Shown here: in pieces, positions 1,712 to 56,224 of the stretch
How the letters are laid out: every line of letters starts with the position of its first letter
How positions within the stretch are numbered: the first letter of the stretch is position 1
Assembly (NCBI GenBank): GCA_027623675.1
Contig: JAQBVF010000003.1
Span: 32,001 to 96,000 of the forward strand
Source: Chloroflexota bacterium
Lineage (GTDB): Bacteria > Chloroflexota > Dehalococcoidia > Lucifugimonadales > UBA3495
Reading direction: 5' to 3'
DNA length: 64,000 nt
Notes under the pieces: generated by a model
Databases searched by the model: none
Seen by the model: the letters and a program-made list of their open reading frames with translations, nothing else
Told to the model about the DNA's origin: nothing
Made by a program: the position numbers and the translations under genes

Positions 1712-2311
1712 TTACCCGCCCAACTCGGCGATCAAACTGGCCACCGTTGGCCGGTCCACCGGCGTCTGGCCGCGGTGTTCGAAGATGACGATCCCATCCT
1801 CATCCAAGATGAAATCCCCGCCAAGTTGCCGCCAGTCGCTGGCCGCATGCTGGTACCTACGCCCTCTGGCGAAATGCTTCACGTAGGTCCAGATTGTCTT
1901 TAGCGAGAAGACCTTTGCCCAGGCGCCTTGTGACAGGCCGTAGGCTAGGTAAACGTCCCTTTCGGGGTCGGACAGAATGGGATAGGGCAACTGGAGCTGC
2001 CGGGTGAGCTGGAAAAGCCGGTCCCTCGGCTCAAAGGAGATGGCCACCACCTCGGCGCCTTTGGATTGAATCTCGCCGTGCCGTTGCCGCAACTGCGACA
2101 GATGCTCTCTTCAGGGCACTCAAGCGAAATGCCTCAGAAATACCAGCAGCGCCTTGCGGCCTCGCAATTCCTGGAGGGATAGATACTTGCCCTCAGGCAT
2201 GGCCAGGGTGAAATCAGGCGCGGCGAGGCCCAGCAACGCCGGTTTGAGGGCATCCGGGTTGCGGCTCATACGCCGCTCATAATTAAGAGCATCTTTTTCA
2301 TGTCGAGGCAC
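1712..2311 (-). CDS. SelL-like / AhpC-TSA thioredoxin-fold selenoprotein with UxxU (two in-frame TGA, at 2120-2122 and 2111-2113); start may be ATG 2269
   Basis: ORFs 2120-2311 and 1712-2092 share one frame and read APDFTL...LVFLRHFA-TGA-VP-TGA-REHLSQLRQ...LSDPER...QLGGDFILD. Confidence 0.85.
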
Positions 2312-2472
2312 CCCTGGTTAGCTTCTTCCGTATGGGCGACATCACGGGGGCGCCCGGTGGGCATGCCCACCAGGGAGACCCCTGGGCATCTAAGGAAATT
2401 GCGGTCTCCACCCACGATGCTATACTCGTCTTCGATGCCCAAACTGCAACTTCTGATTCTACACATTGCACC

Positions 2473-49832: not shown

Positions 49833-51374
49833 TCAGCCTCCGTTTATCCAGTCGGCCATCCGTTCGCCGATCATTATGGTGGTGCAGTTGGTGTTGGCCC
49901 GGATGCAGTCGGGCATGATGGAAGCGTCGGCCACCCTCAGTCCGGTCAGCCCCTTGACCATGCCCTGCTGGTCAACAACCGCCATGGGGTCGGAGTCCGG
50001 CCCCATCTTGCAGGTGCCGGAGATGTGCTGGGTCGTGGTGACGCTGCGTTTGAGCCAGAGGTCCAGAGTCTCATCGGATACGAGGTCTTCGGGCTGGGGC
50101 TCAAGCAACTGCTTCACGATGGGTTTGTAATCGTCGTGTTTCAGGACATCCACGCACTTCCTGACGGCCTCACGCAGTCGAGCGAGGTCACGAGGATCGT
50201 CCTGGAAATAGTTGTAGTTGAGTTCGGGCTGCACGTTGGGGTCGGTGGACGTGATCTCCAGATGACCGGAGCCGTAAGCCAACTCCAAGATGCAGGTGAA
50301 CCTGATGCCCTCGGCCTCAAGCGGGTCGCCGGAGATGGGCGATGAGAACGAAGACGCCATGATCTGTATGTCGTTCCTCAAGTCCGAGCCGGTGGCGGTG
50401 TAGCGGAGGGCCACCTGAGAGCGTGGGTCTTCCGGGTTGAGCGGGAAGTCGTCTTGCACTTGGATGGGAATGCGGACGTTGGGGTGGTCTCGCAGGTTTC
50501 GGCCCACTCCGGGCGCTTCCAGCACCACGGGGATGCCCAGGCGGTCCAGCACTTTGACGGGGCCGACCCCCGACAGCATGAGCAGTTGGGGCGAGCCGAT
50601 GGCGCCGGAGGTCAGGATTATCTCAGAGCCCTCCACCGTGAAACGCTCGCCGTCGCTCTCCACTTCGACCCCGACGGCCCTTTTGCCATCGAAGACCACC
50701 CGGTGGGTCGTAACGTTGGGTTTGATGGTCAGGTTCAGCCGGTGGCGCGCGTCGGCCAGGTAGGTCAGGGCGGTGCTCATGCGGATGCCGTTGGGGTTGT
50801 TCATGGGTATGGGCCCGACACCGGCGGACTCTGGGTGGTTCATGTCCGGGTCGTCGGGATGGCCCTGGGCGCGGAAGCCGGCGTAGAAAGCGTTCTGGGC
50901 GGGAAGCCAAGTGTCACGGGCGTGGCGGCGCACCGGGATCGGACCTTCCGAACCGTGGAAATCGTCATGGATATCGGTGTCGGTCTCCAGTTTCCTCAGG
51001 AAGGGCAGCACGTCGGTGAACCCCCATTGGTCGTTGCCCAAGGCGGCCCAGGCGTCGTAGTCTTCCGGGACGCCCCGGAGCAGCACCTGGCCGTTGATGG
51101 CGCTGGACCCGCCGACCACCCGCCCTCTGGGAACCGGCATGGGCGTGGCCTGCTCCGGCGTGGTGTTGCCCTGGAATGACCAGTTGTGAGGCGCGTCCAC
51201 CGCCGATGCGGTCTGGTTATAGCCGAATTTTAGGTCGTCGGGGTAATGCTCGAAATCGGGATAGTCCGGCCCCGCTTCCAACAGCAGGATGGACTTGTTG
51301 GGGTCCTCGGATAATCTGCTGGCGATGACGCAACCGGCGGAACCGGCGCCGACGATGATGTAGTCGTATCTCAT
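49833..51374 (-). CDS. GMC family oxidoreductase (MftG-like)
   Basis: GAGSAG, GGSSAING, QHISGTCKMG and RANTN motifs. Confidence 0.92.
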   Translation of the reverse strand: MRYDYIIVGAGSAGCVIASRLSEDPNKSILLLEAGPDYPDFEHYPDDLKFGYNQTASAVDAPHNWSFQGNTTPEQATPMPVPRGRVVGGSSAINGQVLLRGVPEDYDAWAALGNDQWGFTDVLPFLRKLETDTDIHDDFHGSEGPIPVRRHARDTWLPAQNAFYAGFRAQGHPDDPDMNHPESAGVGPIPMNNPNGIRMSTALTYLADARHRLNLTIKPNVTTHRVVFDGKRAVGVEVESDGERFTVEGSEIILTSGAIGSPQLLMLSGVGPVKVLDRLGIPVVLEAPGVGRNLRDHPNVRIPIQVQDDFPLNPEDPRSQVALRYTATGSDLRNDIQIMASSFSSPISGDPLEAEGIRFTCILELAYGSGHLEITSTDPNVQPELNYNYFQDDPRDLARLREAVRKCVDVLKHDDYKPIVKQLLEPQPEDLVSDETLDLWLKRSVTTTQHISGTCKMGPDSDPMAVVDQQGMVKGLTGLRVADASIMPDCIRANTNCTTIMIGERMADWINGG

Positions 51375-51550
51375 AAGAAGCGTCCTCTCTTGGCGTTCTG
51401 TTTTACCGCTGGGATACATTTTTGCGGGAGGGCCGTGGGGAGGGAATCGGTAGCGTGGCCGCCCTGCTCAAGCGACGGCATTATCGCATATCGGGCCGGT
51501 GGCGGCATACGGGGTGTGGGGGCAGGCTTCGGGATCGGGATTGAGGGCGC

Positions 51551-53410
51551 CTATTCGCTGAGGTTAAAGACGAACCTCAGATTGGAGATGCTGCTCCGCA
51601 GTAGGAAGAAGCGGGCATTTACCTCGGGAATCATGGCGTTGGCTAGAAATAGGCTATCGTTGGACTGGGTCTCGGCGCTTTCCAACTCCAACGAGAGCCA
51701 TTTCAAGATTGTCCCAAAGTATTCTCCGGCTTCTTGATTTACCGCGGCGGCGGCCTCCGGCGGAGATAACTGGTCCAGGTCAGCGATCAGTTTCTTGGAT
51801 GCCTTGACCAAGGCGGCTCGCGTGCGGACCGCCTCATTGGCGTTCTGGCGTTGGAGAATATTCTGCTTTCGTTGGTCTAAGATCGCGTCCCGGTCGGCCA
51901 GGATCACATCAAGAGCCGCCAGGTAGTTTGCTATCGCGGTCTGTTCCGGGTCGGACCAATCGATCAGCCAGGCTTTGAAGTTTGACTCAAACAGGCCCAA
52001 CTTCTGGCCGGTTACCGCCAACATCGAGGATGCCAGGCTCGAGCCTCGTCCAATCTCCGCAACCACATCCCGGCCGGACAGCGGGCCGTAGGTCTCGTTC
52101 AAGTATCGTATGGCCATGTACGCTTCCGCGTATTGGAGGGTAACCAGGTCCTCGGTGGGGCGCTTGTTCCAGTCCGACTGGCGGTCCAGCTCAGCCAGGG
52201 TGAACAGGCTGCCTGCCCGCGCCGCCGTGCGGGCTACGTCAGCAGACCCGAATTGCCGCAGTCTGGACGCTTGAGGGCGGGGGCCGGCTAAAGCGATATC
52301 AAATTCGTAGTATCGGGAGAGTCCCTCAGCCAGCCACGCCGGCAGCGTCTTAGCTTTGGCCACGCCGTCGAGGACCCGGTGAGCGTATTCGTGGGCCAGC
52401 AGCCGCTGCAACTCGGTCGTCGGCAGGTCAGTGCGGATGTAGATCCCGGGCCGGGTCCCGAACGTTTTGTAGTAGCCGTCTTCAAATCCCAGGTTGATGC
52501 CGTCCGACAGACTCACCTCAGCCAGAAGTTCCCGGTTCTCCATCAGATACAGGTTGGGTAGCTCGCCCGTCTTGGTTTCGGTACGGAGGGCCATCAGCAG
52601 GCTGGTGTCGATCAAGAAATCTTGGAGGTCAGCCACCACCGCCTGAGGCACCAGGGCCGAGTAAAAGACGGTTATTCCGGGGCCGTCGTGGCGGGTCAGC
52701 AGCGCCCCGGCCGACGTCTTTATGGTGTCGCCCAGGTCAAACTCGCTCAGGGAATAGGAGGTGGAGGATACGCTGCCCTGCCGGTCGATCGCCACCGACC
52801 AAGCGCCGACGCCATCCCGGGAACCGTACCGTTTCCAATCAAGTTCACCGGAGGTGTTCGGGTACATCTTGAATGAAGTGGCTTTGACCCCGTTTGCGTC
52901 AACGATGTTGACGTCTTCGGCGGTGATCCAGGGCACGACTACCCCTTGAGGGTCGAGGAACGAGACGATAACCGCTTCCCAAGGAGTTAGGCCCGACAAC
53001 GCGAAAGAAACGTCCCGTCCCGCGAACTGTTTATCGGGTGAGATCGTGAGGGAAACACCGCTTCCCAGATCGACTCTGGCGACGCCCGGAGGGGGCGGAG
53101 TGGGAGTTGGCCTCGGGGTGGCGGTCGGCTGAGGGGTAGGCGTGGCGGTCGGCGGTATGGGCGTCGCGGTGGGAGCGGGGGTCAAGGTCGGGACCGGGAC
53201 GGCAGTCGCCGTGGCCGCCGGCGTGGGGCTTGGCGTTGGCCGTGGCGAAGCGGCCGTAGCCGCGGGGCTGGCGGCGGTTGGACCTGGGGTGGCCGTGGCC
53301 GGAGTGGCCGTTGAATCGGACGCAGGCGTTTTCGGCCCGGCGGACGGGGTGCAGGCGGCCAGGCTGATCAGAAGGGCAATCGCAACTAAGACCGCGGTAG
53401 TCAGCTTCAT
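51551..53410 (-). CDS. Lipoprotein with Pro/Thr-rich linker and peptidase MA-like (HExxH) domain
   Basis: Lipobox LAAC, PT-rich stretch and LAHEYAH...PAWLAEG. Confidence 0.75.
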   Translation of the reverse strand: MKLTTAVLVAIALLISLAACTPSAGPKTPASDSTATPATATPGPTAASPAATAASPRPTPSPTPAATATAVPVPTLTPAPTATPIPPTATPTPQPTATPRPTPTPPPPGVARVDLGSGVSLTISPDKQFAGRDVSFALSGLTPWEAVIVSFLDPQGVVVPWITAEDVNIVDANGVKATSFKMYPNTSGELDWKRYGSRDGVGAWSVAIDRQGSVSSTSYSLSEFDLGDTIKTSAGALLTRHDGPGITVFYSALVPQAVVADLQDFLIDTSLLMALRTETKTGELPNLYLMENRELLAEVSLSDGINLGFEDGYYKTFGTRPGIYIRTDLPTTELQRLLAHEYAHRVLDGVAKAKTLPAWLAEGLSRYYEFDIALAGPRPQASRLRQFGSADVARTAARAGSLFTLAELDRQSDWNKRPTEDLVTLQYAEAYMAIRYLNETYGPLSGRDVVAEIGRGSSLASSMLAVTGQKLGLFESNFKAWLIDWSDPEQTAIANYLAALDVILADRDAILDQRKQNILQRQNANEAVRTRAALVKASKKLIADLDQLSPPEAAAAVNQEAGEYFGTILKWLSLELESAETQSNDSLFLANAMIPEVNARFFLLRSSISNLRFVFNLSE

Positions 53411-53699
53411 GACTTGGCGGCTTTGGCACCTGAAGGGCAGGCCGAGAGGCACGGTTGGGATTTGACCAGCATGAATCCAGTCTTACATAGGGGGAGTTCT
53501 AGGGCAAGCAAGGCGTCGCGTCCCACGCTTGGTCTGGACCGGAGGCCCAGACCAGAGGCTCAGACCGGAGACAGAACATGCCGATCGAGATTTTGCCTGG
53601 GTGAAAGAGTCAAACTCGTGTTAGGATAATCTTGATTTTTGAGGCCCATTCCTGGCCGTCTCATCAAGACCGGTCAGGCCATAACGACTGGAGGGTGCC

Positions 53700-54461
53700 A
53701 TGAACGTCCACGTTTACACGCAACCTGGTTGATTCAGCTGCCGGACTGTAGAAGAATTTCTGAAGTCCAACGGTGTTCAGTATGAGCACCACAACGTACT
53801 GGAAGACCAACAAGCCCTGGAGGACCTGCGCGGCCGGGGCATAAAAGCATTGCCGGTGACCATCATCGATGACTCAGAAGTCATCATCGGTTATTTCCCC
53901 AAGAAGCTGATTCCTGCGCTCAAGCTGGATGTGAAAGTTGATCTTTCGGGAAAGACCGAATGGCTGGCCGACAAATACAACAGGATACTCAGCGCGGCTG
54001 TCCGGACCACTGCCCAGTTCTCGCAGGAGCAGCTGGACGCGGAAGTGCCGTGGCGTCCTTGGACCCTGCGGAAGACCGTCCTCCACATCATGTCCTTTCC
54101 CGAGGTGGCCTACCTGAGCCACAAGGTGGGCAGCATGAGCCAGGAGGACATGCGGGCCTCCGACGCACGCCTGGAGCCGGTCTATACCGCCGGCGACATG
54201 GCTGAATACGGTGAAAAGGTGCGCGGCGACATTGTGGCGTTCCTGAACAGCGGCGACATCGATGCCTTCGACCGGGAGGTTCCCGCCCATTACGGCGGCG
54301 AGGTAACGGTTCTGGAACTGCTGAACATCATTTTGAGCCACAGCACCCATCATCTGAAGCAGGTTTATCACCTGATGCAGACCGATCTCGGCATCACCCC
54401 GAAAGACCCAGCCAGCGATGCCGACTTTGAGGGCATCCAAACCCCGGAATCCCTTTTCTAG
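53700..54461 (+). CDS. Glutaredoxin/NrdH-like domain (UxxC, TGA=Sec at 53730-53732) fused to a DinB-family domain
   Basis: GGAGGG RBS. MNVHVYTQPG-TGA-FSCRTVEEFL...KALPVT is in frame with ORF 53850-54461, which has DinB-like LHI...HSTHHLKQV. Confidence 0.82.
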
Positions 54462-54676
54462 GAACCTAGCGTTTCGTCCTGCTTAGGATTGCCGGTCCTT
54501 CCGCGGAGTGCCTGTTGCGCTGCGGAAGGACTGTATCTTTAGAAGGGTTGTATCTTTAGCTTGACCGGCGCACTGGGATGGACGCATTGCCATCCGTCCC
54601 TTTAGGCCGTCCCTTTAGCCTGTCCTTTTAGCGAGATTGGTGTTGTAGAAAAGATCTTACCTTTAGCGGAGTTGAT

Positions 54677-56224
54677 ATGAAATACGACTATATAGTCCTT
54701 GGCGCGGGCTCGGCCGGTTCGATCGTGGCAACCCGCCTCTCCGAAGACCCGTCCAAGAATATCTTGCTGCTCGAGGCGGGCCCCGACTACCCGGATTTCG
54801 AGCGTCTCCCCGAGGAAGTGAAGTTCGGCTACGCCACCGAGATCGACATCATGGTCAGCGACCACAACTGGCAGTTCGTGGGTAAGGCCACCGAGAAAGC
54901 GCCCGAGATGATGGTCCCCAGAGGCAAGGTAACCGGCGGCTCCAGCGCCATCAACGGCCAGGTCTTCCTCAGGGGAGTGCCCGAGGACTACGACTCCTGG
55001 GCCGAGATGGGCAACACCGAATGGAAGTTCCAGGACTGCCTGCCCTATTTCCGCAAGATCGAAACGGACACCGACTTCAGCGACGACTTCCACGGTAATG
55101 AAGGCCCCATCGTGATGCACCGCTTCCCCCGGGACACCTGGCATCCGGCGACCGAGGCCTTCTATCAGGCGTGCCGAGCCGCCGGCTATCCCGATTCCCC
55201 AGACCACAACAACCCTGATTCCACGGGCGTGGGGCCAACCCCGCTGAACAACCCCAACGGCATCCGCATGAGCACCGCGTTGGGCTACTTGGACCAGATC
55301 CGGCACCGCCTCAACGTGACCATCCGGGCCAATTGCCATGTGCAGCGCATCCTGTTCGAGGGCAAGCGGGCCGTGGGCGTCGAGGTTGAGAGCGGCGGTG
55401 AGAGATTCACAGTTGAGGGCGCCGAGATCATCTTGAGCTGCGGGGCCATCGGTTCGCCCCATACCCTGATGCTGTCCGGCGTCGGTCCGGCCGCACACCT
55501 GCAGGAGTTCGGCATACCCGTGGTACATGATGCCCCCGGCGTCGGTCAGAATATGCGCGACCATCCGCTGGTGTTCGTTACCTGGCGCACCAAACCGGAG
55601 GTGGAACTGGACGGCAACGCACCCCGGATGCAGGCCACCCTGCGCTACACCGCCGGCGGGTCAGACCTCCGGAACGACATGAAGGTCTCCATGCAGTCAT
55701 TCGCCACCGGCCGGATCAACCTGGGCGGCGACCGGATGGTTCCCCTGGGCATCCGCATGTCCAGCGGAATCCAGTTGGCCGCCGGGGCCGGAGAACTTCG
55801 GTTGCAGTCGGCGGACCCTTCGGTGCAGCCGTTCTTGGACTACCGTTATCTGGAGGAGGAGTTCGACCGGGCACGCCTGCGGGAGACGGTCCGGATCTGT
55901 GTGGCCCTGGGCGAGGACCCGGCGTTCAAGGACATCATCCAAGAGCGTATCGAGCCCACGGACGCCGAATTGGAGAGCGACGATGCCCTGGACGAGTTTC
56001 TGTACCGGGAGGTGAGCACTTCTCAGCACATATCCTGCACCTGCAAGATGGGGCCGTCTTCCGACCCCATGGCCGTGGTTGACCAGTATGGCAAGGTCCA
56101 TGGCATGGAGGGACTACGGGTGGTTGACGCCTCCATCATGCCCGACTGCATCCGCGCCAACACCAACGTAACCACCATGATGATTGGCGAGCGAGTGGCC
56201 GACTGGATCAAGCAGGGCAAGTAG
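54677..56224 (+). CDS. GMC family oxidoreductase (MftG-like)
   Basis: GAGSAG, GGSSAING, QHISCTCKMG and RANTN motifs; close paralogue of 49833-51374. Confidence 0.92.
   Translation: MKYDYIVLGAGSAGSIVATRLSEDPSKNILLLEAGPDYPDFERLPEEVKFGYATEIDIMVSDHNWQFVGKATEKAPEMMVPRGKVTGGSSAINGQVFLRGVPEDYDSWAEMGNTEWKFQDCLPYFRKIETDTDFSDDFHGNEGPIVMHRFPRDTWHPATEAFYQACRAAGYPDSPDHNNPDSTGVGPTPLNNPNGIRMSTALGYLDQIRHRLNVTIRANCHVQRILFEGKRAVGVEVESGGERFTVEGAEIILSCGAIGSPHTLMLSGVGPAAHLQEFGIPVVHDAPGVGQNMRDHPLVFVTWRTKPEVELDGNAPRMQATLRYTAGGSDLRNDMKVSMQSFATGRINLGGDRMVPLGIRMSSGIQLAAGAGELRLQSADPSVQPFLDYRYLEEEFDRARLRETVRICVALGEDPAFKDIIQERIEPTDAELESDDALDEFLYREVSTSQHISCTCKMGPSSDPMAVVDQYGKVHGMEGLRVVDASIMPDCIRANTNVTTMMIGERVADWIKQGK

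Follow-up and report, generated by a model that had tools for sequence, protein, structure and literature searches.

Positions 53700–54461 of the window, by which we mean the whole 64,000-nucleotide stretch of the Chloroflexota contig JAQBVF010000003.1 analyzed here, very probably hold a single intact selenoprotein gene that encodes a selenocysteine (Sec)-containing fusion of a glutaredoxin (Grx) with a DinB domain. This assessment, which was made from sequence comparison, covers the identity of the gene and not the chemistry of its product. SelB with Sec-tRNA(Sec) would decode the UGA at codon 11 as Sec, directed by a hairpin that starts 10 nt downstream and places its apical loop 21 nt after the UGA. 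The product would be a 253-residue two-domain enzyme, in which an N-terminal NrdH/Grx-like redoxin with Sec as the attacking residue (U11-F-S-C14) packs onto a C-terminal DinB/YfiT four-helix bundle, whose His129, His214 and His218 coordinate a divalent metal. A first-pass annotation of the window had proposed such a fusion from the letters alone; its observation was confirmed, while its interpretation was supported in part. The features on which the assignment is based are as follows.

53690..53695, + strand: ribosome-binding site GGAGGG, 4 nt 5′ of the ATG at 53700 (sequence inspection)
53700..54461, + strand: putative full selenoprotein coding sequence, 253 codons plus a TAG stop (54459–54461), with a single in-frame TGA
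53706..53912, + strand: Grx/NrdH-like thioredoxin-fold domain, residues 3–71, with the cis-proline P52 (Pfam PF00462, Foldseek)
53730..53732, + strand: predicted Sec codon UGA, residue U11, kept as TGA in close, class-level, phylum-level and metagenome loci
53730..53741, + strand: redox motif U-F-S-C (UxxC), with C14 invariant in family alignment A2
53743..53768, + strand: hairpin of the bacterial Sec insertion sequence (bSECIS) type, with lower stem GGACU/AGUCC, upper stem UAGAA/UUCUG and loop GAAU (minimum free energy (MFE) fold)
53955..54428, + strand: DinB/YfiT (STL) four-helix-bundle domain, residues 86–243 (Pfam DinB_2 and DinB, Foldseek)
54084..54086, + strand: His129, first histidine of the predicted metal triad, an invariant column aligned with the first conserved histidine of solved DinB proteins
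54339..54353, + strand: His214-x3-His218 (HSTHH), second and third triad histidines, invariant and aligned with the HxxxH of 3gor, 3dka, 3di5 and 6iz2

Reading frame, domains and conservation of the TGA codon

The ribosome-binding site, the ATG at 53700 and the frame YTQPG-TGA-FSC, from which the fusion had been proposed, were all recovered at the same coordinates. Ten sense codons (MNVHVYTQPG) precede the TGA and FSC follows it. GGAGG is present at the equivalent place in 18 of 20 related loci (the exceptions being L016 and L018; L017 has GGGAG). The open reading frames (ORFs) listed for the window under translation table 11 include only 53850–54461 at this locus, which has 203 codons and starts with the TTG at 53850.

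Domain scans were performed with Cys standing in for Sec. Residues 3–59 matched Pfam Glutaredoxin (PF00462) at 38.5 bits (cut-off 22.9), and residues 102–222 matched DinB_2 at 40.6 bits (cut-off 24.8), with DinB itself at 26.2 (cut-off 23). The cis-Pro motif of the first-pass annotation was found as KALPV, in which P52 is the cis-proline; this residue is invariant in family alignments A2 and A4. No NCBIfam model exceeded its cut-off for the window protein or for the 36 family members scanned. The best scores below cut-off were those of YruB (56.6 versus 88.55) and NrdH (48.8 versus 85.75), and the cut-offs of mycoredoxin (31.4 versus 89.5) and Grx3 (25.8 versus 90) were not reached either. The YfiT equivalog model gave 19 bits against a cut-off of 160. 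Assignment to the UXX-star Grx-like selenoproteins (NF041212 and relatives) was considered and rejected, as the score was 36.5 bits against 66 and Sec is residue 11 of 253, not three residues from the C terminus.

AlphaFold2 modeling from a 93-row alignment gave a mean pLDDT of 97.0 and a pTM of 0.92 over the whole chain with no low-confidence segment, which suggests a fixed arrangement of the two domains. Foldseek searches against the PDB matched the N-domain to cGrx1 of Clostridium oremlandii (7c10/7c12, TMt 0.90–0.95, 38–40% identity over 73 columns), to NrdH (1h75, TMt 0.86) and to BC3987. The C-domain was matched to YfiT (1rxq, TMt 0.68–0.71), DR0053 (6iz2, 0.81), 2p1a (0.79) and other DinB proteins, and no solved chain in the PDB covered both domains. 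The two histidine motifs were located in frame as LH129I and H214-S-T-H-H218. Across 31 diverse DinB domains from Sec and Cys forms, H129, H214 and H218 are the sole invariant columns, and they coincide with the histidines of solved DinB proteins; on these alignments, the triad recognized by the first-pass annotation is the DinB/YfiT metal triad.

Conservation of the TGA was assessed at several distances. The close set comprised 20 species-level genomes, all of them metagenome-assembled genomes (MAGs) of SAR202, Dehalococcoidia or Chloroflexota, and amounted to 21 sequences with the window. When the DNA was compared, TGA was found at the homologous codon in 20/20 close loci. The ATG and the ten codons before the TGA are conserved as protein with synonymous variation (ACG/ACA/ACC, CAA/CAG, GTC/GTT/GTA) in all 20 genomes, with the start of L018 lying six codons further 5′. 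An even sample of 401 Dehalococcoidia genomes gave ten with a match at E ≤ 1e-10, the window's own genome included. Seven full-length homologues (26–47% identity) each contain one in-frame TGA, located within a UxxC motif that reads UFSC, UFTC, UFHC, UAEC, UATC, USSC or UHSC. The other class-level matches were one partial match with a TGA (query residues 3–70, in an open frame of 101 codons) and one Grx-only match without a stop. At the level of the phylum, 401 genomes were searched with a profile, which returned full-length fusions in five other genomes, each with one TGA. Four Chloroflexota outside Dehalococcoidia (G674, G618, G495 and G583) have a TGA in UxxC.

Forms with Cys in place of Sec were found by an exhaustive phmmer search of 1.84 billion cluster representatives, which gave 656 matches at E ≤ 0.001. 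Cys occupies the Sec column (PGCxxC) in 34/34 aligned distant full-length fusions (21–29% identity, 247–276 aa). A metagenome scan seeded with Cys forms (10-row alignment) yielded 80 loci, 77 of them parsable (L092, L143 and L146 are without the N terminus), and the Sec column was Cys in 67 of these and TGA in ten (PGUTSC). A comparison of Grx–DinB fusions with CxxC and UxxC had been suggested along with the original proposal, and both forms were found with the same two-domain order. The Cys-type homologues are single uninterrupted ORFs of 250–275 aa and the Sec homologues keep the frame across the TGA, which argues for one gene and not two, as had been claimed. The expectation that the TGA column would be Cys or Sec in homologues was likewise borne out, by TGA in the 20 close loci and by Cys in the 34 distant fusions and 67 metagenome loci.

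If the TGA were an ordinary stop, the 10-codon upstream frame would be a leader or meaningless, and the product would be a 'DinB family protein' of about 203–237 residues translated from the GTG at 53748 or the TTG at 53850. The table-11 ORF agrees with this explanation, as do the databases, in which nearly all close homologues are deposited in that form. A word-indexed protein search returned 992 proteins at E ≤ 0.001 out of 1331 candidates. The majority of the best 120 of these 992 matches (85–94% coverage; 237, 233, 220, 214 or 203 aa) begin just 3′ of the TGA and, where the source gives a name, are called 'DinB family protein' or 'damage-inducible protein DinB', from SAR202, Dehalococcoidia or Chloroflexota MAGs. 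In the alignment, however, the deposited short forms start at whichever Met or Val codon comes after the TGA, and truncation lengths that follow the available start codon are what a gene-caller artefact would produce. Translation from a codon 3′ of the TGA would also cost the protein strand β1 and its first redox residue, both part of a fold whose prediction has pLDDT 97 from residue 1 onward. It would account neither for the conserved ATG and upstream codons nor for the uninterrupted Cys homologues. We therefore consider an ordinary stop highly improbable. Several hundred database entries of the family begin past the Sec codon and are without the catalytic residue and the first β-strand, which amounts to systematic mis-annotation; functional or structural work from those records would use a dead protein.

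A different explanation is that near-cognate or suppressor decoding inserts Trp, Cys or Arg at the UGA, or that this lineage has a genetic code with TGA as a sense codon. Database entries with Trp (P0115 and P0135) or Arg (P0108) at the Sec column would fit it. These three are full-length or N-terminal entries, and P0115 stands for 116 member sequences. For the Trp entries, the simplest account is gene prediction on short metagenome contigs with a table in which TGA means Trp; the Arg entry may reflect either a genuine CGA variant or a mistake. TGA is the ordinary stop of 8 of the 37 long ORFs of the window, and it is not reassigned genome-wide. In addition, the column is that of the catalytic Cys of CxxC in homologues, and the position-specific hairpin described below accompanies TGA, not TGC or TGT. 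The window's genome (3.07 Mb, 48 contigs, 91.4% complete) also contains the complete Sec machinery that the first-pass annotation had presupposed: SelB (347.7 bits, cut-off 242), SelA (554.8 bits, cut-off 267.9) and SelD (380.3 bits, cut-off 125) all exceed curated cut-offs, and a tRNA-Sec with a UCA anticodon scored 70.4 bits. The SelD gene (G000:C3:53424-54344, outside the window) has one in-frame TGA, so SelD itself is a selenoprotein in this genome. Decoding of codon 11 as anything other than Sec is, in our judgement, barely credible.

Two observations among the homologues weigh against a functional Sec gene throughout the family. One is the non-Cys residues of P0108, P0115 and P0135. The other is an extra in-frame TAG at codon 22 of L013:3001-3759, at a position that is Lys in the others; this locus is either a pseudogene or a MAG assembly error.

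The hairpin as a candidate bSECIS element

The hairpin is the MFE structure and consists of GGACU (53743–53747), G, UAGAA (53749–53753), the loop GAAU (53754–53757), UUCUG (53758–53762), A and AGUCC (53764–53768), which form two 5-bp stems with a 1×1 internal loop between them. Its onset 10 nt past the UGA and the G in first position of the loop are both as the first-pass annotation had described; the MFE fold has one U-G pair more in the inner stem than was drawn there. A 66-nt region folded at −22.7 kcal/mol compared to a mean of −13.85 for dinucleotide shuffles (z = −3.44), and 1 of 200 shuffles was as stable. The bSECIS model published in PMC13188914 (Fig. 2A) has an apical loop of 3–9 nt, an upper stem of 4–16 bp and a G in loop position 1–2, together with a UGA-to-loop distance of 16–37 nt and an MFE ≤ −7.5 kcal/mol. 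The window hairpin agrees with all four constraints (loop of 4 nt, upper stem of 5 bp, G first, spacing of 21 nt) and has a local MFE of −10.9 kcal/mol, and its proposed role as a bSECIS element is thus compatible with the model as given in that figure. The outer stem GGAC/GUCC is retained in 19 of the 21 close sequences.

A hairpin at this position is specific to the TGA forms. In divergent Sec forms the sequence at the equivalent place is another one, (A/G)CGAAAGA-GUU-UCUUUCG(U), in which the codons ACG AAA GAG UUU CUU UCG specify T-K-E-F-L-S. Cys forms with the same TKEFL peptide use ACC AAG GAG UUC CUC/CUG ACC and have no such stem. The same peptide with different codons, and the hairpin in the Sec forms only, makes a clean natural example of SECIS selection on synonymous sites. 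The two forms were compared quantitatively with 40 Sec and 61 Cys forms of distinct sequence, the Cys set being partly defined by the search pattern. Between nt +10 and +42, the mean local MFE was −9.79 kcal/mol for Sec and −5.83 kcal/mol for Cys forms. Stems of 7 bp or more without interruption, with the loop starting at +19 to +30, were present in 20/40 Sec and 0/61 Cys forms, and uninterrupted stems of at least 5 bp in 24/40 and 7/61, respectively.

Several results count against the hairpin as a selected element. The nominal Mann–Whitney p of about 1e-10 for the Sec–Cys comparison is overstated because the hairpin lies within conserved coding sequence and the compared sequences are kin. Over the whole 51 nt after the codon, the forms differed little in mean MFE (Sec, −13.54; Cys, −12.36) and in z against synonymous recoding (Sec, −0.93; Cys, −0.36), so that Sec and Cys forms are separated only by the position-specific measure and barely by whole-region MFE. 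The outer stem is lost in two close loci, L011 and L019. Covariation among the 21 close sequences is thin, with one pair changing on both sides (three cells; U-A to G-C in L016–L018), and the covariation score was equaled by 20 of 500 shuffles. RNAalifold gave a weak consensus of −6.63 kcal/mol with 0 compensatory pairs for the same sequences, which are too similar for this test.

Neighboring genes, phylogeny and other Sec candidates

Two further features flank the coding sequence.

53601..53630, + strand: weak sigma-70-like promoter match GTGAAA-18-GATAAT (1 site versus 0.8 expected in shuffles)
54677..56224, + strand: GMC oxidoreductase gene (Pfam GMC_oxred_N/C), a downstream syntenic neighbor

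The promoter match is at chance level and hence is no evidence of function. An inverted repeat, CCTTCCGC...GCGGAAGG, lies at window 54487–54519, 26 nt past the stop; no T-run follows it and the terminator scan made no call. Upstream is a divergent Peptidase_MA_2-like gene (51551–53452, − strand). The GMC gene is directly downstream in 17 of 20 close loci; L018 has an upstream GMC match instead, and no GMC match was found at L016 or L017. The seven class-level divergent loci tested had no GMC match either. In the window, paralogous GMC genes (about 60% identical) flank the locus on both sides, at 49833–51419 (−) and 54677–56224 (+).

Beyond the close set, neighbors of divergent Sec and Cys forms were scanned after near-duplicates had been dropped, which left 61 same-strand ORFs of 67 candidates. 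These included 12 TctC/Bug receptors, three family-III CoA-transferases, three metallo-beta-lactamase-fold proteins, two MmgE/PrpD and two GSDH, the rest being assorted. The suggestion that the enzyme might act in dehalogenation was dropped, as no reductive-dehalogenase or related gene was present among the neighbors examined and nothing pointed to dehalogenation. One metagenome contig, L073, carries two different Cys-type Grx–DinB fusion genes, and paralogy therefore exists within one genome fragment.

A quick maximum-likelihood tree of 103 distinct proteins (41 Sec and 62 Cys) was built with the Sec/Cys column masked; it is unrooted and came with long-branch warnings. The tree requires at least four Sec/Cys changes, and its well-supported branches alone force only one. 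Most Cys forms fall into one nested clade (59 rows, SH-aLRT 95), and the Sec forms are on deeper, longer branches of this tree, in which the root is not placed.

A second Sec candidate is located at window 1715–2317 (−), a Prx-like frame (AhpC/TSA PF00578, 79.6 bits) whose in-frame TGAs at about 2122 and 2113 give U-V-P-U at the peroxidatic site. It is probably the gene that the first-pass annotation called 'SelL-like', and it fits the known family 'Prx-like thiol:disulfide oxidoreductase, UxxC/UxxU' as entered in Table 1 of PMC13188914. The claim that this gene has a hairpin at an equal offset failed, as window 2055–2124 (−) folds no better than shuffles (z = +0.56). A crude window-wide scan for other TGA-containing frames was too noisy to count a selenoproteome, and only the Prx-like UxxU gene was convincing. 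Seven Grx-only matches in other Chloroflexota (L059–L065; about 75–85 residues, in open frames of 122–204 codons) also contain in-frame TGA, one in six loci and two in L062. They may represent further Sec-containing redoxins, or fusions in which the partner domain is another one.

A 'large hidden selenoproteome' had also been suggested. That it is large is plausible from the TGA of SelD and the UxxU gene. It is not hidden: Table 2 of the BSepDB paper counts 49 and 46 selenoprotein genes in two Dehalococcoidia MAGs (PMC13326102), and a large Dehalococcoidia selenoproteome is therefore already in print. The Grx–DinB gene, which in the window comes from a marine SAR202 bacterium, is one of SAR202 and other Dehalococcoidia, and the same paper lists this group, in its available text, among the bacteria richest in selenoprotein genes.

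Proposed chemistry and comparison with known systems

For the reaction catalyzed, we tentatively favor a self-contained enzyme in which Sec11 attacks, C14 resolves and thioredoxin reductase (TrxR) recycles. The DinB metal site would bind and polarize an electrophilic or oxidized small-molecule substrate, and the tethered selenolate would take the role that bacillithiol, mycothiol or glutathione has in free-standing DinB thiol transferases and isomerases. C14 would then resolve the Se-adduct as a selenenylsulfide, to be re-reduced by TrxR and not by a low-molecular-weight thiol. This mechanism, a possible one, is favored because GshB, BshC and MshC were not found, TrxR is present, the redoxin is NrdH/YruB-like and DinB enzymes normally activate a diffusible thiol. 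NrdH is TrxR-dependent. In the window's own genome, GshB and BshC had 0 matches and MshC was below cut-off (328.7 versus 485.1), which, if anything, argues against a transferase dependent on glutathione, bacillithiol or mycothiol; TrxR was detected at 362.2 bits (cut-off 343.45), with two more matches below cut-off (334.0 and 323.7).

Stated at the level of the family, the product would be a DinB/STL metalloenzyme with an internalized thiol cofactor, the redoxin selenolate (thiolate in Cys forms) being presented to the His3-metal site in place of bacillithiol, mycothiol or glutathione. This generalization is doubtful. If true, the protein would be a self-contained, TrxR-recycled selenol transferase, isomerase or reductase for electrophilic or oxidized metabolites, in bacteria apparently without those thiols. 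DinB-type enzymes would then have a novel means of dispensing with a low-molecular-weight thiol, and the family would offer a defined Sec/Cys pair for asking what selenium adds. Two points tell against the mechanism. Other low-molecular-weight thiols (Cys, CoA, ergothioneine or gamma-Glu-Cys) may still serve in a genome that is 91.4% complete, and no neighbor is common to the whole family, gene context not being kept beyond close kin.

Gene context can also be read as pointing to a catabolic isomerase, lyase or hydratase acting on an electrophilic (for example, alpha,beta-unsaturated) organic acid, to which the tethered Sec or Cys would add reversibly, as in the thiol-dependent maleylpyruvate isomerases of the DinB family. 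The Cys fusions are often in organic-acid catabolic contexts, as seen from the TctC/Bug, family-III CoA-transferase and MmgE/PrpD genes among the 61 neighbors, and BKACE, RraA-like aldolase and PEP-mutase/ICL-family neighbors are also present. The GMC oxidoreductase directly after the gene in the close loci and a Foldseek match to the mycothiol-dependent maleylpyruvate isomerase 2nsf (TMq 0.44) are in line with such a role. However, neighbors vary by clade with none family-wide, and because some bacteria have very many TctC genes, relatives could share this adjacency by coincidence. An invariant resolving C14 is unnecessary for a purely catalytic addition–elimination, and we regard this role as unlikely.

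The C14 that a catabolic isomerase would not need is typical of two-electron redoxins, in which UxxC or CxxC is paired with an invariant resolving Cys. The fusion might accordingly be a dedicated reductase of a hydroperoxide, disulfide, sulfoxide, quinone, metalloid or organometal, with the DinB metal binding the oxidant, UxxC supplying two electrons and TrxR, which is over cut-off in the genome, recycling the enzyme. Of the solved structures, that of cGrx1 is nearest to the N-domain, and the available text of PMC7642778 describes cGrx1 as a native selenoprotein and a proposed reductant of MsrA. Against this, the available text of PMC5815605 describes no reductase of this kind among DinB/STL members, and no conserved partner gene was found; a dedicated reductase is questionable. 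The self-contained mechanism, the catabolic role and the dedicated reductase are not separable by the present data.

The first-pass annotation had not recognized the architecture as characterized, and no paper describing a Sec Grx–DinB protein was found in the open full-text literature; subscription-only papers, such as those on the original Sargasso Sea and GOS selenoproteomes, were outside this search. A 2026 inventory of 119 prokaryotic selenoprotein families and subfamilies (PMC13188914) has 0 occurrences of DinB and no DinB-containing protein in its Table 1. The available text of the BSepDB paper does not mention DinB (PMC13326102). None of the words DinB, Grx, glutaredoxin and YfiT occurs in its supplement text; since even the known Grx family is absent there, this result carries no weight in either direction. 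The genes could be filed there under 'Grx', because BSepDB, according to that paper, searches only previously reported families (PMC13326102).

Among known systems, canonical glutathione S-transferases resemble the fusion in having an N-terminal thioredoxin-fold followed by an all-helical domain, and many whole-chain Foldseek matches are to these enzymes. This is a topological analogy only (TM 0.24–0.31, rmsd 13–18 Å), with no sequence relationship; to our knowledge, glutathione S-transferases have no metal site. A further comparison is with the two-domain DinB enzymes (2nsf; EgtB and LmbV), in which DinB is joined to a second domain that sets specificity, as far as PMC5815605 describes them. 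In those enzymes DinB is N-terminal, the partner is not a redoxin and the thiol is a free cofactor. YfiT/BstA (STL) proteins share the four-helix bundle. The available text of PMC5815605 describes metal-dependent thiol transfer by BstA with H67, H160 and H164, and three histidines as the only fully conserved residues of the eight metal-dependent bacillithiol transferases BstA–H of B. subtilis; three histidines are the sole invariant residues of the DinB domain in the window family too. Known members, however, use a diffusible thiol (bacillithiol, mycothiol or glutathione) and are without a redoxin domain.

The Cys-type Grx–DinB fusions, which are called 'glutaredoxin' or 'hypothetical protein', have the same domain order, length and His triad at 21–29% identity, with CxxC for UxxC. 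They differ in having no hairpin after the codon and other gene neighborhoods. For the N-domain, the closest known system is cGrx1 of Clostridium oremlandii, which has the same thioredoxin/Grx fold with Sec first in U-x-x-C at the start of helix 1. The available text of PMC7642778 presents cGrx1 as a native selenoprotein with a U/C-P-x-C motif, for which glutathione is the stated reductant and MsrA the enzyme served. In contrast to cGrx1, which is free-standing with about 75 residues, the window protein joins U-F-S-C to a 170-residue DinB domain, scores best against NrdH/YruB-type models and comes from a genome in which GshB was not found. Sec-containing Grx is an experimentally verified selenoprotein family in Table 1 of PMC13188914; the Sec-containing Grx itself is already known, and the fusion with DinB makes a new variation on it.

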